The notes beneath the pieces were generated by a model, which saw only the letters and a list, made by a program, of their open reading frames with translations, had not been told where the DNA came from and did no database searches. A DNA stretch of 64,000 bases from Escherichia coli (GTDB taxonomy: Bacteria > Pseudomonadota > Gammaproteobacteria > Enterobacterales > Enterobacteriaceae), in NCBI RefSeq assembly GCF_024700885.2, contig NZ_CP117016.1, one strand, 5' to 3'. Numbering within the stretch: position 1 is the first letter of the stretch; each line of letters starts with the position of its first letter. Shown in pieces: positions 5,174-24,288 of this stretch. Both the position numbers and the translations under genes were made by a program.

Positions 5174-5638
5174 CTAGATTCGTCTCGCCTGCCAGAAATT
5201 TTTCTGCCAATAGACATTATCAAGTGAGGAACGCATCACTCCCTTGCTGGTAGAGGCGTGGATAAATTGGTTGTTGGTATCGTAAATACCTACATGCAAA
5301 CCATTTTGTCCGGAGCCCGTTTTGAAAAAGACCAGGTCACCAGGCAGCAACTCGTCTTTATCAATTTGCGTGCCGATAGAGGCTTGTTGTTTGGTTTCAC
5401 GGGGCAGCTGCAAATCGAAACGATCGCGCATCGTCACAACCACAAACCCCGAACAGTCCACACCGCGCCGCGTCATGCCACCATAACGATACGGCGTGCC
5501 ATGCCAGCTCTGTAGCTGGTCGTTCAAACCGGCAATAACGGTAATCGAATCAGAAAGTCTGGCATTTGGCGGCGGTGCTTTATGGTGGCTACACCCGGCC
5601 AGAAACAGTGCTGTGATCAAAATAAGGCAGAAACGCAT
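5174..5638 (-). CDS. nlpC: NlpC/P60 family lipoprotein
   Basis: 154-aa ORF with lipoprotein signal (LFLAGC) and NlpC/P60 Cys (DCSGF). Confidence 0.85.
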   Translation of the reverse strand: MRFCLILITALFLAGCSHHKAPPPNARLSDSITVIAGLNDQLQSWHGTPYRYGGMTRRGVDCSGFVVVTMRDRFDLQLPRETKQQASIGTQIDKDELLPGDLVFFKTGSGQNGLHVGIYDTNNQFIHASTSKGVMRSSLDNVYWQKNFWQARRI

Positions 5639-9069: not shown

Positions 9070-10047
9070 TTAAGCACCTCCTAGTGGATTAAACCTCACC
9101 GCATCCTGCAGGTAATCCGGCGCAAGATGGGCATAAATCATCGTTGTCTGAATCTTTGCGTGCCCCAGAATTTTCTGGAGCGTGAGAATATTGCCACCGT
9201 TCATCATGAAATGACTGGCGAAGGTGTGGCGCAGCGCATGAACAGCCTGGCCGTCAGGAACATCAGGTGCGACCGTTTTGATGACATCGCGAACCAATGA
9301 ATAATCCAGCGTCGGAAACACCAGTTTCCCGCCCCGTTTTTTGATCTTTTCAAACAGGCTTTCAGAAATAGGAACGGTACGGTTTTTGCTGTTCTTCGTT
9401 TTTGAAAAAGTGATTCGACAATGAAGAACACGGCGCTGCTCCAGTACCGCTACCTCGCCCCATCGCGCCCCGGTCGACAGAAGGATTTCGACAGCCAGCC
9501 GTTCATCGGGATTTTCAGCCAGTGCATCCAGCAACTGAACACATTCAGACTTACTCAGATATCCCATTTCGCGCTCGTTAACCTTCATTCCTTTAAGGCC
9601 TTGAACGGGGTTATCGTTAAGAAAATGGCCGGATGAGATGAGTGCGGTAAACATCGCGCTTAACGCCCCAATCTCTCGATTTATGGTGCTGGGCTGTATC
9701 CCCTGCTCTATCCTGGACACACGTAGCTCGGTGAGCATCGTTGTATTAAGTCTATGCACGCACGGGTCATCCATTGCCTCACTCAAGCGCAGCAATTTAA
9801 GGCGCGTGTTATGCCCTGACTTCATTAGCTGGCCGTGGTATTTCCACCACAAGTCAATAAGCACTGACAGAGGACGGCGATCAATAGAGTTTCCTTTCCA
9901 CTCATTGTTATGCTGTTGCGCCAGCACCCACCGCTCATATAAAACTGCATCCGATTTCGTTTTAAATTTTTTGCGAATGCGTTTGCCTTTACGCCCCTCA
10001 GGGCGCATGTCAAGAAGATACCCTCCCGGAATTGATTTTATGCTCAT
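9070..10047 (-). CDS. int: P2-type tyrosine integrase
   Basis: Recognised similarity to P2 Int, including ...LSTGARWGE..., HALRHTFASHF and the C-terminal catalytic Tyr region; start set at MSIKS, the track ORF starts at an upstream GTG. Confidence 0.85.
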   Translation of the reverse strand: MSIKSIPGGYLLDMRPEGRKGKRIRKKFKTKSDAVLYERWVLAQQHNNEWKGNSIDRRPLSVLIDLWWKYHGQLMKSGHNTRLKLLRLSEAMDDPCVHRLNTTMLTELRVSRIEQGIQPSTINREIGALSAMFTALISSGHFLNDNPVQGLKGMKVNEREMGYLSKSECVQLLDALAENPDERLAVEILLSTGARWGEVAVLEQRRVLHCRITFSKTKNSKNRTVPISESLFEKIKKRGGKLVFPTLDYSLVRDVIKTVAPDVPDGQAVHALRHTFASHFMMNGGNILTLQKILGHAKIQTTMIYAHLAPDYLQDAVRFNPLGGA

Positions 10048-10096
10048 TCGTGAAACCCCAGCGTTACAAGACCACCATGCCCCCAGCGTTCCATGA

Positions 10097-10410: not shown

Positions 10411-10462
10411 GTGTTCCTATAAGTACACTAAGCTTGCGCACAAGGTGTACTTATAAGTACAC
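10411..10462. promoter_or_regulatory. Putative operator of the immunity switch: 18-bp perfect palindrome plus imperfect upstream copy
   Basis: gtgtacttataagtacac at 10445-10462 is a perfect inverted repeat; gtgttcctataagtacac at 10411-10428 is a degenerate copy; between divergent C and cox-position genes. Confidence 0.5.
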
Positions 10463-12400: not shown

Positions 12401-12790
12401 ATGATTGACGCTCATGACTTCACAAGATGGGTGCGCACACAGGACACCCGTCTGGCTCCCATTCTTCGGGGATTATTTGATCTCTACATTCGTGGTCGTG
12501 ACAACAGAGCACGCACCACAAAACCGGAGAATGTGGATACCCTTTATTTCACAGTAGACGACTGCTACCGCGTGGACTTCACACCACACGGACTGGCGTT
12601 GCACTGCCTGACACCGCACGGCGAATCACTGCTGGCGTATTACGACTCCCCGGCCTCCGTATTTGCGGCAATGCTGGCGCATCGCACTGCTGGCGGGTGT
12701 GCCTCGCTGAGTGAATACACCGCTGAGTTTAACCGCCTTTCCGCCCTCTTCTCGCAGGAGTGGCAGCGCGTGACGGGATACCAGCCATGA
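12401..12790 (+). CDS. Prophage early-region hypothetical protein
   Basis: 129-aa ORF whose stop overlaps the A start (ATGA). Confidence 0.45.
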   Translation: MIDAHDFTRWVRTQDTRLAPILRGLFDLYIRGRDNRARTTKPENVDTLYFTVDDCYRVDFTPHGLALHCLTPHGESLLAYYDSPASVFAAMLAHRTAGGCASLSEYTAEFNRLSALFSQEWQRVTGYQP

Positions 12791-15627
12791 GTGAGTTTGC
12801 ATGGAGCTGGAATGAACCACGGCCAGCCATTGATCCGGCCAGATTTACGGAGCGCAGGCAGGAAACTGAAACCGACCTGCAACGCGCCATCCGTTACTAC
12901 CTTGAGGCAGACAAAAAGGCCCAAGAAGAACAGGAAGCGAAAGAGGAAGCCTTTTTCGCACAATCCGCCATGGGTAAAAAACTCATGGCATCCCTTGAGG
13001 AAGCCGGACAGCGTGAAAAGCTGGCACAAAGCATCATCAGTAAGCGCCGGGCAACAGAACAAGACCCGGTGGCCCGTGCCTTTGCCACACTGAAGGTGCT
13101 TCCCGTTTATCTGCGAGAACCCCTGAGCCGCCACCTCTCTTTCCTGCGCAAAAAACAGGAAGCCGATCGCCGGAAAGGCAAAAAGAGCTGGCAGGCGGAA
13201 CGCTATGCACGCGGAACCCTGCGCAAAATATTCGAACGTCTGGATCGCACTGACGGACGCTGGCTGACACAGGGTTATCGCTCCATTGCCGGACGCGAAC
13301 GCCTGGACGATTTGCTTTACCTGCCGCAGCTCAACAAACACCAGGTACAGACACTGGCCACCATGACGGCAGCAATGTTCAGTAGCACATTCGAAAAACT
13401 CTGCGATGGCTTTGGCGCGACCGATGGTGAGCTGACCATGGATGTAACGCTGAAGGCGTATCAGATGCTGGCCCGCATGGCGTTACATCTGCACGCCATG
13501 CCTCCACATTATGACGCACTGACAACAGATAGAGATCGGAGGAACGAACCGGACACAGAGCTGCTGCCAGGCGCAATCCTTCGCCTGACCTGTGCTGAAT
13601 GGTGGAAACGCAAACTGTGGCTATTACGTTGCGAGTGGAGAGAAGAACAACTCCGCGCCGCCTGTCTGGTTTCCAGAAAAACATCGCCCTATCTGAGCCA
13701 GGACGCGTTAAGCGAGTTTCGCGCACAGCGCGAGAAAACACGCGATTTCCTGAAAGGTTTCATGCTGGAAAACGAAGACGGGTTCACGATTGATCTCGAG
13801 ACAGTGTATTACGCGGGAGTAAGTAACCCGGTTCACCGTAAGGCAGAAATGATGGCCACCATGAAGGGGCTGGAACTTCTGGCCGAGGCCCGTGGTGACA
13901 AAGCGGTGTTTCTGACTGTCACCTGCCCGTCAAAATACCACGCCACAACAGAGAACGGTCATCCGAATCCCAAATGGAACGGGGCCACCATGCGCGACTC
14001 CAGCGATTACCTGGTTAACACGTTTTTTGCGGCGGTCCGCAAAAAACTGAACCGCGACGGTCTGCGCTGGTATGGCATCCGCACGGTGGAGCCTCACCAT
14101 GACGGCACCGTGCACTGGCATATGATGGTCTTTGCTCATCCGGAAGAAATCGACAGCATCGTGGCCATCACCCGCGATATTGCCATTCAGGAAGACCGCC
14201 ACGAGCTGGGCAATGATATTACTCCGCGCTTTAAGGTGGAGTATGTCGACGGCTCAAAAGGCACACCAACCAGCTATATCGCGACCTACATCGGAAAAAA
14301 CCTGGACAGCCGCGCCGTGGATGGCATCGACCCGAAAACGGGCAAACCACGCGTTGACCACGAAACAGGTAAATCAATGGCCGAGAGCGTGGAGCGCGCC
14401 ATCGGCTGGGCGCGCCTTCACCGGGTCCGCCAGTTCCAGTTCTTTGGCATCCCCTCCCGTCAGGTGTGGCGTGAACTGCGCCGCCTTGCCAGCCAGATGG
14501 CACGCAACCCGGAAGGCCCGCAACGGCTGAAGGATGACGCAATGGATGCGGTACTCGCTGCCGCTGATGCCGGGTGTTTTGCCTCCTACATTGAAAAACA
14601 GGGTGGCGTACTTGTTCCACGCAAGGACTACCTGATTCGCACCGCCTACGACCTCGCAGATGAGCTGAACGATTACGGCGAACAGAGCGTACAGATTTAC
14701 GGGATCTGGTCACCACTCATCGGGGAATCCTCCCGTGTGTGCACGCACCCGGATAACTGGAAGCTGGTAAGACGTAAACCGGAAGCGGAAGACAGCACCC
14801 GCGAAAATGATTTTGACCTTCAGGGCGGCCCTGCCGCCCCTTGGACTCGTGGCAATAACTGTCCCCGTGTACAGGAAACAGACAACAACGGGACAGAACA
14901 GCCGGAAGAACGGCCAGCACCGTGGCCGCAGCTCCCTGACGGCGTTGAAGTGAACGAATGGATGCATTCACTGAAACGGCACGAACGCCGGGCGCTGATG
15001 CGTTCGCTTCGTGACAAACAGGCAAAAAACAGCAGCGATGAAATGCAGAACTGGACACAGAGCCGCAAACAGCCACAGCCTTTACCTGATAACCACGAGT
15101 TACTCGCTAAAGAATGGCGGGAGTCTGCTGAATCTCTCGGCCTGCATATTGGTGAACAGCAGATGCAGCACCTGTTACGGGGCGGCAGTCTGTACGTTGA
15201 CGGCAGCATCATTGCACCGCAGGGATTTGAAATTGTACGCAAACCGGATACCCGCCCGGACAGCCGAATCACGCAGCTCTGGCAACGCCTGAGCCGTAAT
15301 CACGGCGTAAGCAGCACGGAGATCCGCCATAACCCGGTCGCCAGCTATCTGGAACAGCTGGGGGCATCAGACCCTGAAGCCGCCGCACGCCTGGCATCCA
15401 CACTTCAGCAAGACCAGAACACCATGAAAACCCCCGTTACCGTGCTTTCTGACATGCTGCGCGCCATCCGTGACGCAGAGCACGCACAGAGAATCAGTGA
15501 AACCACTGAACGCGCCCACCGCAAAGCAGACCTGCTGCGGGGTAGCCTGACCAGTGGAAACAAAAAACAGACAGAAACGGGACTCACAAATCCCGTAAAT
15601 GAGCAAAAAACGTGCCGCGATATATGA
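12787..15627 (+). CDS. A: Rolling-circle replication initiator (P2 gpA-like HUH endonuclease)
   Basis: HUH motif region TVHWHMMVFAHPEE and tyrosine motif YIATYIGKN; 946 aa, longer than I recall for P2 A. Confidence 0.8.
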   Translation: MSEFAWSWNEPRPAIDPARFTERRQETETDLQRAIRYYLEADKKAQEEQEAKEEAFFAQSAMGKKLMASLEEAGQREKLAQSIISKRRATEQDPVARAFATLKVLPVYLREPLSRHLSFLRKKQEADRRKGKKSWQAERYARGTLRKIFERLDRTDGRWLTQGYRSIAGRERLDDLLYLPQLNKHQVQTLATMTAAMFSSTFEKLCDGFGATDGELTMDVTLKAYQMLARMALHLHAMPPHYDALTTDRDRRNEPDTELLPGAILRLTCAEWWKRKLWLLRCEWREEQLRAACLVSRKTSPYLSQDALSEFRAQREKTRDFLKGFMLENEDGFTIDLETVYYAGVSNPVHRKAEMMATMKGLELLAEARGDKAVFLTVTCPSKYHATTENGHPNPKWNGATMRDSSDYLVNTFFAAVRKKLNRDGLRWYGIRTVEPHHDGTVHWHMMVFAHPEEIDSIVAITRDIAIQEDRHELGNDITPRFKVEYVDGSKGTPTSYIATYIGKNLDSRAVDGIDPKTGKPRVDHETGKSMAESVERAIGWARLHRVRQFQFFGIPSRQVWRELRRLASQMARNPEGPQRLKDDAMDAVLAAADAGCFASYIEKQGGVLVPRKDYLIRTAYDLADELNDYGEQSVQIYGIWSPLIGESSRVCTHPDNWKLVRRKPEAEDSTRENDFDLQGGPAAPWTRGNNCPRVQETDNNGTEQPEERPAPWPQLPDGVEVNEWMHSLKRHERRALMRSLRDKQAKNSSDEMQNWTQSRKQPQPLPDNHELLAKEWRESAESLGLHIGEQQMQHLLRGGSLYVDGSIIAPQGFEIVRKPDTRPDSRITQLWQRLSRNHGVSSTEIRHNPVASYLEQLGASDPEAAARLASTLQQDQNTMKTPVTVLSDMLRAIRDAEHAQRISETTERAHRKADLLRGSLTSGNKKQTETGLTNPVNEQKTCRDI

Positions 15628-15703: not shown

Positions 15704-16663
15704 ATGAAAATTTGTATCGACGACGGCTCCACCAACATCAAGCTGGCATGGACTGAGAACGGCGAACGCCGCAACGCCATCAGCCCGAACAGCTTCAAGT
15801 CGGAATGGTCTGCGCCGTTCGGTGGCACGCAGCCCGCGAACTACATGCTTGATGGCGTGCGCTATGGTTTTGATCCGGTCAGCGATCGCTTTATCCAGAC
15901 GACCGACACACAATACCAGTACAGCGATGTGAATGTCATTGCCATTCATCACGCGCTGGTCAAATCAGGCATCACGCCACAGGAGGTGGATGTGGTTGTC
16001 ACCCTGCCACTGAGCGAGTATTTCGACACAAACGCACAGCCGGACATGGCCAACATCAACCGCAAAAAAGCAAACGTTATGCGCCCGGTGGAATACCAGA
16101 ACGGCGAAGCATTCACTATCCGTAATGTACGGGTTATGCCTGAATCCATTCCGGCTGGCTTTAAAGCACTGGCTGACATGAGTCCGTTTGAATCCCTGCT
16201 GATTGTGGATTTAGGTGGAACCACGCTGGATGTGGCAAAGGTTCAGGGACAACTGGCAGGTATCAGCCAGGTGTTTTGCGATCCACACGTAGGCGTTTCC
16301 CTGATGGCCGATGCAGTACTGTCGGTGATGGCCACTAACGGTATGCGTACCAGTCACCACATCGCCAATACCATTATCGAACATCGCCATGATGAAGCCT
16401 GGCTGCGCCAGCACATCCACAATGACGCGCATTACGCCAGCCTGATGGCGGTTATTCGTGAAAAGGAAGAAACACTGAAACAACGCGTGATCCGCGCGCT
16501 GGCGGGTTTTTCGGGTTACGGGCGGGTGATGGTTGTCGGTGGCGGGGCGGAGATTGTGGCACCCGCTATCCGCGAAGCCTGCGGAGTTAATGCGACTTTC
16601 ATCGCGGACGGGGTGCCACAGTTTGCTCTGGTTAATGGGCTGTACGCAATGGACAAGGAGTAA
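15704..16663 (+). CDS. ParM/StbA-like actin-family segregation ATPase
   Basis: 319 aa; IDDGSTNIKL, YSDVNVIAIHHAL, VMPESIPAG, LIVDLGGTTLD, VMVVGGGAE, LVNGLY match remembered R1 ParM blocks. Confidence 0.8.
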   Translation: MKICIDDGSTNIKLAWTENGERRNAISPNSFKSEWSAPFGGTQPANYMLDGVRYGFDPVSDRFIQTTDTQYQYSDVNVIAIHHALVKSGITPQEVDVVVTLPLSEYFDTNAQPDMANINRKKANVMRPVEYQNGEAFTIRNVRVMPESIPAGFKALADMSPFESLLIVDLGGTTLDVAKVQGQLAGISQVFCDPHVGVSLMADAVLSVMATNGMRTSHHIANTIIEHRHDEAWLRQHIHNDAHYASLMAVIREKEETLKQRVIRALAGFSGYGRVMVVGGGAEIVAPAIREACGVNATFIADGVPQFALVNGLYAMDKE

Positions 16664-17042: not shown

Positions 17043-17426
17043 ATGAGCAAAATCAACTATCAGGCATTACGTGAACGTTATTCACCTGCACCAGTACCAA
17101 AATGCCCTATTTGCTGCGAAGAAATGTCAATTCAGCGAATATCTGGAGCACAGGTTGTTTATGGCTGCTCCGGTTATGGTGATGATGGAGATTTCAAAAT
17201 TGGTCGAACTCTTGCCGACGAACATTATGAAAAATCACGCGTAACAGTGTTGGATGTCGGGGATCCTGAAGTATTGGCGCTACTTGATTGGCTGGAAACC
17301 AAAGACAACCGAATCGCTGAACTGGAAAAAATCGCCACTGACTATGCACTTAAATTCCAGAAAGCACAGGACGCATTAAAGTACGCCGCTTTGCTGCATA
17401 GCAGGTCAGCGCAGCTACAAGACTAA
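17043..17426 (+). CDS. Hypothetical protein with CPICC motif and C-terminal coiled coil
   Basis: 127-aa ORF in the variable region between A and cos. Confidence 0.45.
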   Translation: MSKINYQALRERYSPAPVPKCPICCEEMSIQRISGAQVVYGCSGYGDDGDFKIGRTLADEHYEKSRVTVLDVGDPEVLALLDWLETKDNRIAELEKIATDYALKFQKAQDALKYAALLHSRSAQLQD

Positions 17427-17516: not shown

Positions 17517-18047
17517 TTATTCAGCATCGTCTCGTGCAGTCTGTGCATACGTCACAACAACGCCCAATGCATTAGTTTTCTTTTCAACATAGATAATATT
17601 GTCATATTCATAGTTACCATACGGATAGCAAATAAGAATATTTTTATGCAGATCGGGATCATCAACAAACGCTCCGGAACAGCTTCTTGAACTACCGGAT
17701 GTATACTCATACGGTGCAACATATGATGATGTTACTCCTGGTAAAAAATAAGTCACCATCATAAGAGGGATAATCAGGAATATCCCTGTAAGAATGCAAG
17801 AGCCAGCATAAACCTTCAGGTATTCCGACAGTCCTTTCCAGCCACTTTGCTTCACTACCCCCCTCTTCACCAGAAACAAGGAGAAGAAAAAGGACATACC
17901 CATACTACATAAGATGTAATAATTGGATATACGCGAATTAAGATATGTAATCCTGTAGATATCTGCCCTCCACCAGTAAAAGAGGAAAATAATCCCTAGC
18001 ACTGAAACAGTCATGCAAATCAAATAAGGATATGAATCTTTCTTCAT
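17517..18047 (-). CDS. Low-GC prophage cargo: small integral membrane protein
   Basis: 176 aa with 3-4 predicted TM helices, about 25-30% GC, in the P2 tin/old-equivalent position. Confidence 0.55.
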   Translation of the reverse strand: MKKDSYPYLICMTVSVLGIIFLFYWWRADIYRITYLNSRISNYYILCSMGMSFFFSLFLVKRGVVKQSGWKGLSEYLKVYAGSCILTGIFLIIPLMMVTYFLPGVTSSYVAPYEYTSGSSRSCSGAFVDDPDLHKNILICYPYGNYEYDNIIYVEKKTNALGVVVTYAQTARDDAE

Positions 18048-18049
18048 GT

Positions 18050-18577
18050 CTTGCGCTCATTAAAATTTCCCTGCTACGAACAAATTTACCATCCGTTTTT
18101 TGCGCAGAAAACAGCACGATGCACACTGCACGATAGTGCACAAATTTGCACAATTTTTTTGAACGACTTTTTACCCTTCCGGCCCGCATGGCGGCTGGAT
18201 CCGTCAAGGATCCGTGCGTGCACAAAAAAACGCGTTTTTTCTGCGCGCAGGTGACGGGGGAACAGCCCGCGTTTCAGGGGGTAAATAGTATTCCCTGAGC
18301 GATGTCGCAGCGACATAACAGAATGGCCATATTTCTCACGCTGAGCGTGAAAAAGATGTGAGGGCTTTTGATTTGATGGGGTGAAAGGTAAGGCCGTCAA
18401 AATCGAACTGAGGCGGTGAGAACATGCAGTCAGCGCGGTGGGATTGCGTAAGAGTCTGACCGTCGATGATGGTAATAAACAGGAAAGCGTCGTGAAATTA
18501 TCTGATTGATACAGGAGCTGGAGAGTCGGGGCATAAATTTTTTATGCCCCGGCGAAGCAGCGGACAAGCGAAGCGCG
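18050..18577. other. Non-coding region expected to contain the cos site and packaging signals
   Basis: By position immediately upstream of portal Q; contains TGCAC repeats (18120-18151), ggatccgt direct repeats and palindromes; exact cos ends not identified. Confidence 0.35.
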
Positions 18578-19624
18578 TCAGGATGTGGGCTGGGTGTCTA
18601 ACAGTGCGTAAGGGTTAAAGCGAATCACCTCTTCGCCAAGCCAGTCATTGATGTGCTTCATGGCCTCCATGACGGGCATCAGCTCGTTAATTGCGTAAAC
18701 CCGCGCGGCCTTCTCCACATCACCAAACGCACTTTTTTCGCCTGGCATCGCCCCCATCAGTTGCGGCGGAACGCGGTGCGCAGCCAGCACATCATCACGG
18801 GATGCCACCTTAACATTCATGAACTCATCCTTTGCGGTGATCTGCTGGAACGGCAAAATTTGCACCCCCTCTTTGCCACCGTTGGGCGCATGAATGAGCA
18901 CGTTTTTAAACGCACCACCACCACGTGCACCCTGTAGCGTTTCTTTCAGGGAGTCCATGCTTTCGCGGTTTACCTGCGCTGCACCGATGTAGATGATGCA
19001 CCCGGCGTGGGATCCGTTGTCGTAATACAGTTTTCTGAACATGTCCGCCGAATGAGACAGGCTGGCCGAGAGTAATGCGCCGAGATATTCCGGCATGCCG
19101 TAGATTTCCTGGTTAATGTCAGGATTCATCAGGTGGCACACTTTGCCAGGGCGAAACTGAAACGCGTCCTTGCCATCCTGCACATACCACCATGATTCAA
19201 GATCGCTTCCGCGTCGCATGTATTTCGCCAGGGCGTGCCGTAATTTAAGCGGTTCGCCGAGCATATTGCTTCGAAGCTCAAGGAATGCGTTACCGAACAC
19301 AAACCAGTCCAGCGCCAGCGCCGAGAAATCCTGCCGGGAAAGCAACGGGTGCGGGATGTAGCAACCGAGTAATACATTGCGCTTAAAGTAAAGCGCAGAC
19401 TGATGCCAGGACGTTTGCCGGGCAGCTCTTGCCAGACCGTACCAGTCCACCGGGGTTTCATACCACCGCCCGTTATCAGCACAGTACATATTGTCCAGCA
19501 GGTCATGCCCGGTCAGGCGATAAGGACCATCAAATGTGAATGCACTGAGCGATGATTCTTTCCTGAGCGCATCAGCGAGATCAATGCGTGAACTCATGCG
19601 CACTTTTTTATTTTTTCTACTCAT
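18578..19624 (-). CDS. Q: Portal protein (P2 gpQ-like)
   Basis: 348-aa ORF recognised as P2-type portal; adjacent and co-oriented with terminase. Confidence 0.85.
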   Translation of the reverse strand: MSRKNKKVRMSSRIDLADALRKESSLSAFTFDGPYRLTGHDLLDNMYCADNGRWYETPVDWYGLARAARQTSWHQSALYFKRNVLLGCYIPHPLLSRQDFSALALDWFVFGNAFLELRSNMLGEPLKLRHALAKYMRRGSDLESWWYVQDGKDAFQFRPGKVCHLMNPDINQEIYGMPEYLGALLSASLSHSADMFRKLYYDNGSHAGCIIYIGAAQVNRESMDSLKETLQGARGGGAFKNVLIHAPNGGKEGVQILPFQQITAKDEFMNVKVASRDDVLAAHRVPPQLMGAMPGEKSAFGDVEKAARVYAINELMPVMEAMKHINDWLGEEVIRFNPYALLDTQPTS

Positions 19625-21375
19625 CAGAACTCCATAACCGTGAAACGCTCGTTTTCTCCTTCGCCGCCAATTGGTTCGTTAATGACAGCAAGCATGGTTG
19701 CCCACGCAAGGTCGCCGTGGCTGATCCCCCTCGCGCGGTCCGTTTCGTAAGTGATAAAGCCGCCCGGTGTTTTCACCTTACGCACGGCGTTAAAGGCCGC
19801 GACCAGCTCGCGTTCGGCGCGATCGTATTCCCACCGCCCGGCACGCATTATTTGCAGCATTTTCAGTACCAGCGACCGTTTTGATGACAGCGTGAAGGTG
19901 TACGGAATAGCGGCAGGGAAAAACCGTTTCACTATCTGATAAACAGCCTCCCCGTTCCCGCCCGTCACATCAATGCCGATGTGTTCCACGTTGTAGCGAC
20001 ACGTGAACTCTTCAATGACTCTGGCCTGTTCTTCAAACTCCAGCCCCTGAACGCGTCGCGTCTCCACCGTTCGAAAACGGCCACCAGGAACAGACGGAGG
20101 AACCACCACGGACACAGCGCCGCTGTCGCCGTTGCCACTGCTGCCGTTTGCGTCATACCCAATCCATACCGGACGATTCCCCATCGGGCGGGGAGCAAAA
20201 GGTTTCCAGTCTTTCCAGTCGTCGTATCCGTCAACACCGCAGCCAATCAGGATATTCAGGTTAAATGCCGATTCCCCTTCGCGGACAAACTCACACATAT
20301 AGAGATTGAGGAACTCGTCTTCGGTGTTTTCATCACGAATTTCGTCGATATCGGTGTGTTCCCAGCCGTGATTAACCACATCTTCCAGCGTGACAATTTG
20401 CCGCCACGTCCGGTCAGGGCAGATAAGCCCGTTATGCAGCGTTTTCCAGTCCACAGAAAAACGCTGGCGTTTATGCGTGGCCTTTTTCTCGTTCCAGCGG
20501 TCGCCGTTCCAGTAGGCGTATGCCTCGTGCGTTTCGGTGGATGGCGTGGAGAAGTAGGTGCGCCGCAGTCCGCTGAGGGTTGCCATAGCGCCAGCCACCT
20601 TGCGCAGTTCAGCAAAGCGACTGACCCAGAAAAATTCATCAAAATAAAAATTGCCCGTATAGGACTGTGCCGACGCAGCAGAAGTGCCGAGAAAATGCAG
20701 CTCTGCGCCGTTGGAGAGGATGATTTTATCGCCCCCTTTCAGCTCCACATCAACTTCAGCCGCGGCCTTCTGAATAATGCTTTTAAACTGGAACGCCTGA
20801 CGACGCGACGCAGACAAAAAAATCTGGTTACGCTGGTAAGGTTGCGCCACATCGTCACGCAGCGCCATCAGCAGCGCTTCCTGTGCAAAATACCAGGTCG
20901 CCCCAATCTGTCGGGATTTCAGGATCATCCTGTTACGTATCCCTGCTTCCCTGCAAAGGGTCAGGGAGTCAAACCAGCCCCGCTGATGCCACTCCAGCCT
21001 GCTGATGATTTTTTCCCGCAGTGCGGCAATCTGTTCCGGCGTGAAATGATTTTTAAGCTTTTTCGCCCGGCCTTTCTTTCCTGTGGCCGTCGCATCCGGC
21101 TGGCCATCATGCAGTTTTTTAAGCTGCCGGGTCAGCAGGTCTATTTCCTTGAAGTCACCACCTGTTTTATTCTGTTTTTCAGTGAGCTGGATGAGGCGCG
21201 CATCGATGGACTGCGTGACACGCTGCACGGGTGGCGTTTCATCCCACTGGTCGCGTTTTTTCCACGCATAAATCGTGTTCGGGTTTATTCCCATCAGACG
21301 TGATATTTCTGCGGGCGGATAACCCTGCCAGTAAAGTTGCCGCGCACGCTGGCGCACAAAAGCGTCCTGAATCAT
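19624..21375 (-). CDS. P: Terminase large (ATPase) subunit (P2 gpP-like)
   Basis: 583-aa ORF recognised as P2-type terminase ATPase; stop overlaps Q start. Confidence 0.85.
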   Translation of the reverse strand: MIQDAFVRQRARQLYWQGYPPAEISRLMGINPNTIYAWKKRDQWDETPPVQRVTQSIDARLIQLTEKQNKTGGDFKEIDLLTRQLKKLHDGQPDATATGKKGRAKKLKNHFTPEQIAALREKIISRLEWHQRGWFDSLTLCREAGIRNRMILKSRQIGATWYFAQEALLMALRDDVAQPYQRNQIFLSASRRQAFQFKSIIQKAAAEVDVELKGGDKIILSNGAELHFLGTSAASAQSYTGNFYFDEFFWVSRFAELRKVAGAMATLSGLRRTYFSTPSTETHEAYAYWNGDRWNEKKATHKRQRFSVDWKTLHNGLICPDRTWRQIVTLEDVVNHGWEHTDIDEIRDENTEDEFLNLYMCEFVREGESAFNLNILIGCGVDGYDDWKDWKPFAPRPMGNRPVWIGYDANGSSGNGDSGAVSVVVPPSVPGGRFRTVETRRVQGLEFEEQARVIEEFTCRYNVEHIGIDVTGGNGEAVYQIVKRFFPAAIPYTFTLSSKRSLVLKMLQIMRAGRWEYDRAERELVAAFNAVRKVKTPGGFITYETDRARGISHGDLAWATMLAVINEPIGGEGENERFTVMEF

Positions 21376-23487: not shown

Positions 23488-24288
23488 ATGATTACTCCTG
23501 CACAGCAACACTGGCAGAACGTGATGGCACAGCGCGCAGGCCGGGCGAATGAAGGCGTGGACCACGCCGCGCGTACCGCGCATGAAGAGGTGCTGTATCG
23601 TCTGCGTCTGGCACAGGCCCGACTTAAGGGCGTACAGGCCAGAAGCGCGAAAGCCGCCATCAAAAAAGAGTTGTTGCCGGACTTTTCCGGCTGGATTGAG
23701 GGAACGCTGGAGGCTGACGGCGGGCAGCAGGATGAAGTGATTGCCACGCTGATGGTGTGGGCAATTGACTGCGGCGATCTTCCGCTGGCGCTGCGTATTG
23801 GTGCGTATGTGGTCCGTCACAACCTCATCATGCCGGATAACTTTGGCCGTACTGCTGCCACGGTACTGACCGAAGAAATCTGCAACCCGGTACTGACGCA
23901 GGCCGGGACGGATGCCGACGCGGATTTGTCCGCCTTTATCGAACCACTGGACACACTTTGGGAAATTGTCGCCAACCAGGATATGCCGGACGAAGTGCGC
24001 GCCAAATTATGCAAGGCGTGCGCCTTTGCCCGCCGTAGCCTGAGCGATGCGGACAGCATGGCCTCATCACTGAAGCTGCTGCGCGAAGCGATGCACCTGA
24101 ACCCGAACGCAGGTGTGAAACGCGAGATTGCAACCCTTTCCCGCGCTCTGAAAAAAGCCGATTCCGCAGCCGCACCAGAAGATGCCAGCACACCGCAGGC
24201 GCAGAACGAAAGCAGCAAAAGTAAAAAGACAACGCGGAAGCCTGCAACACGAAAAACCACCGCGACGCAGAAGGCGAAGCGCGGTTAA
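23488..24288 (+). CDS. M: Terminase small/endonuclease subunit (P2 gpM-like)
   Basis: 266-aa ORF in the P2 M position with basic C-terminal tail. Confidence 0.75.
   Translation: MITPAQQHWQNVMAQRAGRANEGVDHAARTAHEEVLYRLRLAQARLKGVQARSAKAAIKKELLPDFSGWIEGTLEADGGQQDEVIATLMVWAIDCGDLPLALRIGAYVVRHNLIMPDNFGRTAATVLTEEICNPVLTQAGTDADADLSAFIEPLDTLWEIVANQDMPDEVRAKLCKACAFARRSLSDADSMASSLKLLREAMHLNPNAGVKREIATLSRALKKADSAAAPEDASTPQAQNESSKSKKTTRKPATRKTTATQKAKRG

Follow-up and report, generated by a model that had tools for sequence, protein, structure and literature searches.

The interval spanning positions 18127–18286 of the 64,000-nt stretch of Escherichia coli DNA analyzed here (hereafter, the window) is very probably (with a probability that we place at about 0.87) the cos site of a P88-like prophage (Xuanwuvirus, P2 family) that looks complete. 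Its layout is that of the classical cos sites of P2, 186 and P4, but the sequence of its predicted cohesive end differs from theirs. The block was found in 1,105 of 5,426 complete E. coli genomes (~20%) and was annotated in none of them. P88 and PhiSM, both of which were isolated as viable phages (PMC5285337, PMC6456863), carry it at 98–100% identity. The DNA of the window is 92–96% identical to that of P88-like phages of the genus Xuanwuvirus (family Peduoviridae), and positions 18120–18300 are 100% identical to E. coli E-1246.

Position of the interval and its flanking genes

According to Pfam assignments, the interval is bounded on one side by the 3′ end of Q, the portal gene, and on the other by the non-essential region that follows gpA [Table 1]. 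The scaffold (O) and capsid (N) genes also lie on its portal side, and the head operons P-Q and O-N-M diverge beside it in a layout identical to that of the P2 and 186 records. The proposal of an initial annotation of this DNA that cos should lie here by analogy with P2 is thus supported both by the P2-type genes that flank the interval and by the cos architecture of P2, 186 and P4. The location of an Ogr-type gene far to the right indicates that the prophage spans roughly 9–42 kb and looks complete. Just before this gene, a 386-aa ORF on the minus strand (40262–41422) may represent a cargo or defense gene. Relatives of the prophage carry a Plasmid_stab_B-type partner gene beside the ParM-like gene (L296), and the presence of partition genes in an integrating P2-like phage is curious.

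The interval itself is non-coding, its ORFs being short and unconserved. The small ORF at 18374–18502, annotated as a 42-aa coding sequence in LR595891, retains only 12 codons in the window and was not accepted as a gene. An Rfam scan of the interval yielded no match, and no candidate passed a scan of the interval for sigma-70-like promoters. The hairpin at 18525–18553, a stem without a U-tail, has a plus-strand folding energy of -24 kcal/mol (z-score of -5.7) and a minus-strand energy of -17.6 kcal/mol (z-score of -4.6); the tQ terminator of P2 and the tW terminator of 186 are annotated at the equivalent position.

Table 1 Features of the probable cos interval and its surroundings (positions are those of the window)
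Feature	Position	Strand	Basis or remarks
Replication protein gpA	12760–15627		Left of the interval
ParM-like actin-type segregation ATPase	15704–16663		Cargo between gpA and cos
Ead/Ea22-like protein	17043–17426		Cargo between gpA and cos
176-aa membrane-protein cargo gene	17517–18047	-	phrog_1416; function unassigned in PHROG match
Upstream region of membrane-protein cargo gene, outside cos	18048–18112	-	~76% identical to phage 434, mEp332, 2B8
Three TGCAC phased by exactly 10 bp; proposed terminase recognition array, cosB analogue	18127–18151	+	Clustering, conservation, offsets
AA then T7 tract directly after the array	18152–18160	+	T-run conservation
GC-rich imperfect inverted repeat CCGGCCCGCATGGCGGCTGG	18179–18198	+	Partly conserved; place of the P4/186 GGCGCGG hairpin
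Direct duplication of GGATCCGT	18197–18215	+	P88-lineage-specific; second copy only loosely kept as GGATC(C/G)G
TGCAC + A-run, cos-proximal repeat at -31	18219–18230	+	Equivalent of the left edge of the P2 55-bp core
A6CGCGT6 perfect 16-bp palindrome AAAAAACGCGTTTTTT	18225–18240	.	Spacer between the -31 repeat and the core; unconserved
GCGCGCA, invariant left flank of the core	18243–18249	+	125/133 P88-type and 59/68 other unique copies
Predicted 19-nt 5′ cohesive end (cosN equivalent) GGTGACGGGGGAACAGCCC	18250–18268	+	P2 match, geometry, conservation
GCGTTTCAGGGGGTAAAT, right flank still common to the satellite	18269–18286	+	blastn homology stops at 18286
Dyad ATGTCGC-A-GCGACAT	18302–18316	.	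Lineage-specific; outside conserved cos and satellite homology
Dyad TCACGC-TGA-GCGTGA	18336–18350	.	Nearly confined to the P88 lineage; outside satellite homology
Strong hairpin	18525–18553	-	25 nt downstream of the Q stop; positional analogue of P2 tQ
Portal, P2 gpQ homologue	18578–19624	-	Pfam; 47% identity
Large terminase, P2 gpP homologue	19624–21375	-	44% identity; N-terminal HTH (Terminase_5/HTH_23, residues 6–63), ATPase and RNaseH-like nuclease domains
Small terminase, P2 gpM homologue	23488–24288	+	Pfam; 37% identity
Ogr-type gene	41624–41884		Near the prophage end

The TGCAY framework and the predicted cohesive end

The circular junctions of P2, 186 and P4 were rebuilt for comparison. 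The P2 and 186 records start at the experimentally known 19-nt ends (GGCGAGGCGGGGAAAGCAC and GGCGTGGCGGGGAAAGCAT), which lie 168–177 bp from the portal stop codon, a terminator following the portal gene. Relative to cos, P2, 186 and P4 display TGCAT at -123/-124, -111, -101 and -29, the last as TGCATTAAAAC, and this -29 repeat is followed by a GC hairpin, the 19-mer and (T/C)GCGCGC. The homology between P2 and P4 covers exactly 55 bp, from -29 to +26, a span that matches the 55-bp core of Ziermann & Calendar 1990 as given in a passage of PMC5694545.

The window carries TGCAC at 18120, 18127, 18137, 18147 and 18219, with an additional GCAC at 18114. Nowhere else in the 64 kb, whichever strand is read, do four TGCAC words fall within 45 bp, the background density being about one per kb; the copies at 18120 and 18114 are unconserved. 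Counted from position 18250 or its equivalent, TGCAC is found at -123, -113, -103 and -31 in the window, in a satellite element and in phiT5282H. As in P2, 186 and P4, there are thus four TGCAY words at near-identical offsets, three between about -123 and -101 and one at about -30. Unlike in those three, the word is TGCAC rather than TGCAT, its copies are spaced by exactly 10 bp, and a T7 tract follows. To place the cut site, we used this TGCAY framework, a feature derived here from the P2, 186 and P4 records, as a geometric predictor, scanning all 128,000 strand-positions of the window with the P2 offsets at a tolerance of ±2. All four offsets were satisfied only at 18248, 18249 and 18250. 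Our search of the literature for protein-DNA binding to TGCAY in P2-family phages found none.

The initial annotation had noted that the P2 cohesive end could not be recognized in the interval. The exact P2 sequence is indeed absent, but a homologue exists at 18250–18268, in between the features that had been listed. Comparison of the 17900–18700 region with the P2 end on either strand returned GGTGACGGGGGAACAGCCC as the top match, with 13 of 19 positions identical, a match that is weak by itself, about 0.16 such hits being expected in a region of that size. Placement of the end at 18250 is supported because this match coincides with the position returned by the independent geometric predictor. 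In the rest of the 64-kb window, no canonical P2 cohesive-end sequence was found, the best other match (14/19) lying in coding DNA. An earlier candidate for the end, GAGGCGGTGAGAACAT at ~18410 (12/19), was dropped, being unconserved outside the P88 lineage and misfitting the geometry. The predicted nicks would lie 5′ of 18250 (or 18248) on the top strand and after 18268 on the bottom strand, ±2 nt, leaving overhangs of probable 5′ polarity; the uncertainty between 18248 and 18250 arises because the TGCAY framework sits 2 nt out of register with the 19-mer as aligned by sequence.

Aligned with the cos regions of P2 and 186, a check that the initial annotation had suggested, the interval shows the same components at corresponding places. 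In common with P2, 186 and P4, it has a G-rich 19-mer starting with GG(C/T)GA and, bordering the core, a GCGCGC motif, and the whole lies between the portal 3′ end, with its hairpin, and the cargo genes. The differences are nonetheless substantial. The 19-mer departs from that of P2 at 6 of 19 positions (GGTGACGGGGGAACAGCCC versus GGCGAGGCGGGGAAAGCAC); GCGCGC precedes the 19-mer here and follows it in P2 and 186; an A/T palindrome or an unrelated spacer replaces the GC hairpin of P2, 186 and P4; the framework is offset by 2 nt; and cos lies 309 bp from the portal stop codon rather than 167 bp as in P2. At the DNA level, blastn detected no similarity to the P2, 186 and P4 cos sites. The two terminase subunits are only 37–44% identical to those of P2 (37% for TerS and 44% for TerL), which fits a changed recognition and cut sequence.

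Variant G-rich ends are also known elsewhere in the P2 family, namely GGTGAGGCGGGGTCCAAC in phiRSA1 of Ralstonia and GGCGAGGCGGGGGAACGAG in SEN4/SEN5 of Salmonella (PMC5694545, PMC5261728). The end determined for phiRSA1 starts with GGTGA, as does GGTGACGGGGGAACAGCCC (PMC5694545). Beyond the first few bases, however, both ends diverge from GGTGACGGGGGAACAGCCC, and they were determined or predicted by their authors whereas that of the window is predicted here. The cos site of lambda (cosQ-cosN-cosB) follows the same logic, with a staggered nicking site beside an array of repeats for the small terminase subunit and 5′ overhangs. The analogy is one of mechanism and not of membership: the sequences and the small subunit are unrelated, and the overhang of lambda is 12 nt long compared to 19 nt. 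Furthermore, lambda cosB harbors an IHF site between its repeats, whereas no match to the IHF consensus WATCAANNNNTTR with at most one mismatch was found in 18100–18300 on either strand.

Conservation of the array and core in phages and a satellite

IMG/VR was scanned with a 16-mer from the core and a 24-mer from the TGCAC array, and metagenomes with the 19-mer. The pooled samples amounted to 243 copies, 201 of them unique (133 P88-type and 68 other), representing at least seven flank lineages; the portals of the sampled lineages are 65–99% identical to the portal of the window. Divergent lineages conserve only three segments, 18127–18160, ~18213–18232 (TGCACAAAAAA) and 18243–18268. The invariance of 18250–18265 in the first sample is partly circular because the search pattern lay inside the core. 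In the sample selected with the array, which is independent of the core, the exact 19-mer was nevertheless present in ~95% of the copies, and GCGCGCA, which lies outside every search pattern, was found in 184 of the 201 unique copies. The array itself is at least 90% conserved in divergent lineages. A T-run of six or more follows it in 132/133 P88-type and 59/68 other unique copies, a feature absent from P2, 186 and P4, and a TGCAY word is found near -31 in 130/133 and 64/68 copies, respectively. Conversely, positions 18297–18577 showed no conservation outside the P88 lineage.

Four contigs (L021, L052, L104 and L111) carry the motif without portal, terminase or gpA genes. The corresponding satellite-like island of E. 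coli TOE17 spans 12.3 kb between a tRNA-Arg gene and dsdC (NZ_CP069093.1 1,502,231–1,514,484, equivalent to L298 6001–18254; the whole of L021 amounts to 12,006 bp), and 20 complete E. coli genomes contain 80% or more of it. The island encodes an integrase, an Icd-like protein, regulators, a toprim primase, a second integrase, an ogr/Delta-like zinc-finger protein, a P2-family major capsid protein and MazEF, and is devoid of portal, terminase and tail genes. A P4-style satellite does not usually carry a capsid gene. Within the cos interval, homology between the satellite and the window is restricted to 18126–18286 (80.6% over 165 nt by blastn), that is, from the first conserved TGCAC, with the entire array, to 18 nt past the 19-mer, which ends in CAGCAC in L021, L052 and L111 and in CAGCCC in L104. 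Cos is likewise the sole region of homology between P2 and P4 (PMC9122126). A segment is common to phage and satellite, as in the P2/P4 pair, and the terminase of the phage is likewise of the P2 gpP/gpM type. The core is near-invariant across the 201 unique copies. The confinement of the homology to 18126–18286 argues that the two dyads and everything to the right of 18286 are dispensable for recognition.

The TGCAC array could alternatively be a transcription signal, either an intrinsic terminator of the early/cargo region or an operator of the membrane-protein cargo gene, although we regard this as unlikely. A terminator scan flagged GTGCACAAATTTGCAC followed by T7 as terminator-like, and positions 18053–18184, array included, travel with the homologous membrane-protein gene in phage 434 and are ~76% identical to the region upstream of that gene in the lambdoid phages 434, mEp332 and 2B8 (for phage 434, OL657226.1 27195–27321; L130 1201–1327). 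The hairpin, however, is weak (5-bp stem, -6.5 kcal/mol, z-score of -1.2), the minimum-energy fold pairs the first two copies of the repeat rather than forming a stem beside the T-run, and all three copies are conserved when a hairpin would need only two. P2, 186 and P4, moreover, have TGCAT at the equivalent cos offsets without any T-run. Phage 434 makes no use of this cos, and its array has decayed to TGCAC, TACAC and TGCGT, whereas P2-like phages and the satellite, with unrelated left-hand neighbors, keep three perfect TGCAC copies. The array is therefore best assigned to cos rather than to the cargo gene. The 434 match suggests that the cargo gene moved from a P88-like into a lambdoid phage together with a piece of the cos flank.

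All motifs listed in the initial annotation were found again at their positions on recheck, and its view of them as a packaging region holds for the array (18127/18137/18147) and the repeat at 18219, which are conserved across lineages and in the satellite. It does not hold for the GGATCCGT duplication, the palindrome and the two dyads, which are lineage-specific and lie outside the conserved packaging signal. Both instances of GGATCCGT (18197–18204 and 18208–18215) occur together in 123/133 P88-type unique copies, compared to only 5/68 of the others; of these 68, 36 carry GGATC[CG]G one or more times. A perfect dyad at 18302 was seen in 4/133 P88-type and in none of the 68 other copies, the usual form ending in GCGACAC; the dyad at 18336 is present in 99/133 and 3/68 copies. 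With arms of 7 and 6 bp, the two dyads are at or near chance expectation (~0.16 and ~0.6 expected in 528 bp, with fold z-scores of -1.0 and -2.2), and the fold of the GC-rich inverted repeat at 18179–18198 reached no significance.

The palindrome deserves separate consideration, as cos might lie in the interval with the cut falling within it (~18223–18241), which would align TGCGCGC at 18242–18248 with its counterpart beyond the cohesive ends of P2 and 186. This motif comes immediately after the 19-mer in P2 and 186 and immediately after the palindrome here, and the palindrome, which sits where P2, P4 and 186 have their GC hairpin, is one of only two perfect 16-bp palindromes in the 64 kb. It is, however, perfect in just 64/133 P88-type and 1/68 other unique copies; natural variants include ACGCGCTTTTT, the common allele, and CGAAGCAAATG, and phiT5282H has the unrelated CGAAGCAAATGTCG in its place. 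A cut at this position would furthermore put TGCAC at -4 instead of -29, breaking the geometry of P2, 186 and P4, and a self-complementary overhang would permit head-to-head joining. A cut within the palindrome is thus very improbable compared to one at the 19-mer. The second 16-bp palindrome of the window (10446–10461) lies just beyond an integrase-similar region (~9082–10059) and may be an operator.

Finally, the prospect that the invariant 26-bp block serves another phage or satellite function (late-promoter activator site, recombination hotspot or replication element), with cos elsewhere or packaging by headful, is similarly slight: conservation alone names no function and the region beside cos is a known recombination hotspot (PMC9122126), but the terminase, portal and capsid belong to the cos-packaging P2 type, the best P2-end match elsewhere in the window falls in coding DNA, and the block agrees with P2-family cohesive ends in position, G-richness, GGTGA start and flanking geometry.

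Variants of the core and apparent genome ends

Natural variants of the predicted end include GGTGCCGGGGG…, GGTGACGGGGGGCAAGCCC and forms ending in CAGCAC or CAGTCC. The Klebsiella phages Kp4845-1 (L189) and ST16-OXA48phi5.4 (L190) of the genus Reipivirus, as well as L166, have GGTGACGGGGGGCAAGCCC as their core and keep the GCGCGCA prefix. The array is mixed or reduced in the two Klebsiella phages, that of Kp4845-1 reading TGCAC/TGCGT/TGCAT, and the Reipivirus-type core may represent a neighboring packaging specificity. Two IMG/VR genomes (UViGs 2778261593_000009, or L067, at 5334–5612, and 2648501669_000002, or L089) encode a P88-like gpA (91% identity) and have the core GGTGACGGGGGAACAGTCC; in both, the second TGCAC of the array is fused to the -31 TGCAC, the intervening 72-bp deletion removing the GGATCCGT repeats. 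Their portal and terminase, encoded downstream, are only 30–35% identical to those of the window and slightly closer to those of P2, even though the core is kept, a pairing that counts against the proposed cos. The lineage may be a recombinant formed at cos. In a further IMG/VR genome (UViG 2681813261_000011, or L125), at ~49 nt from the contig end, the IS1 end …GTCATTACC abuts CA|GGTGACGGGGG; since IS1 replaces everything to the left of the core, this prophage should be packaging-incompetent, judging from its sequence.

Deletions inside the 19-mer were seen in two phage records, one of 7 nt in Chuche (L131, PP925824.1 ~19678; GGTGACGG-------GCCC) and one of 5 nt in P88_4B11 (L003, LR595891.1 ~77–90; GGTGACGGGGGGACAG-----G). 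They may be either assembly (join) artifacts at physical ends or real, tolerated variants; if they are real, an intact 19-mer is not a strict requirement. Read as footprints of physical ends, they are suggestive yet equivocal, the P88 and PhiSM records being intact, and they were not retained as such.

Deposited sequences were also inspected for traces of the virion ends. None of 32 matching phage records starts or ends at the motif. The start of LR595891 (window position 18172) is arbitrary, and the apparent ends of L046 and L053 are boundaries of record storage. Two metagenome contigs end 3 and 22 nt past the 19-mer; because these ends fall where lineages start to differ, they were attributed to breaks in the assembly graph and were not used as evidence. 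One of the two contigs carries the chromosomal pheA gene and therefore corresponds to an integrated prophage. The papers describing P88 and PhiSM (PMC5285337, PMC6456863) make no mention of cos, and searches of the open-access literature for the whole or partial 19-mer in connection with phages, and of the literature for reports of P88-type virion DNA ends, found none.

Proposed packaging mechanism and specificity

By analogy with P2, the terminase of the prophage would recognize the three TGCAC words, set one helical turn apart and followed by a T-tract, together with the fourth TGCAC located 72 bp further. Candidate readers of these words are gpM, the small subunit, and the helix-turn-helix at the N-terminus of the large subunit, gpP, acting singly or together. 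Two nicks, 19 nt apart, would then be made by the gpP nuclease domain in the G-rich core, GCGCGCA|GGTGACGGGGGAACAGCCC|, yielding 5′ single-stranded ends. P2 packages its DNA from circular monomers. In the P88-like prophage, one genome length would be packaged, and the ends would anneal and be ligated after injection.

A broader reading, which we advance tentatively and at somewhat less than even odds, is that P88-type phages and their relatives in Escherichia, Citrobacter, Enterobacter and Klebsiella constitute a separate packaging-specificity group of the P2 family, with their own end (GGTGACGGGGGAACAGCCC), their own recognition word (TGCAC as opposed to TGCAT) and their own satellites, one of which would be the 12-kb tRNA-Arg element with its ogr/Delta-like and P2-family capsid genes. 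Phased TGCAY words at fixed offsets would then be a general terminase-recognition element of all P2-family cos sites, located outside the 55-bp core. If this rule holds, a P2-family cos site would consist of three phased TGCAY words and one near -30, followed by the cut site, and the pairs TGCAT/GGCGAGG… and TGCAC/GGTGACG… would offer a natural pair of specificities with which to study the reading of DNA by terminase. The general understanding of phage packaging is unchanged, and the use of the finding is mainly practical, as an annotation and as a specificity variant: the probable cos site allows the genomes of P88-type prophages to be oriented and their packaging mode to be assigned, and satellites dependent on P88-type phages to be recognized.
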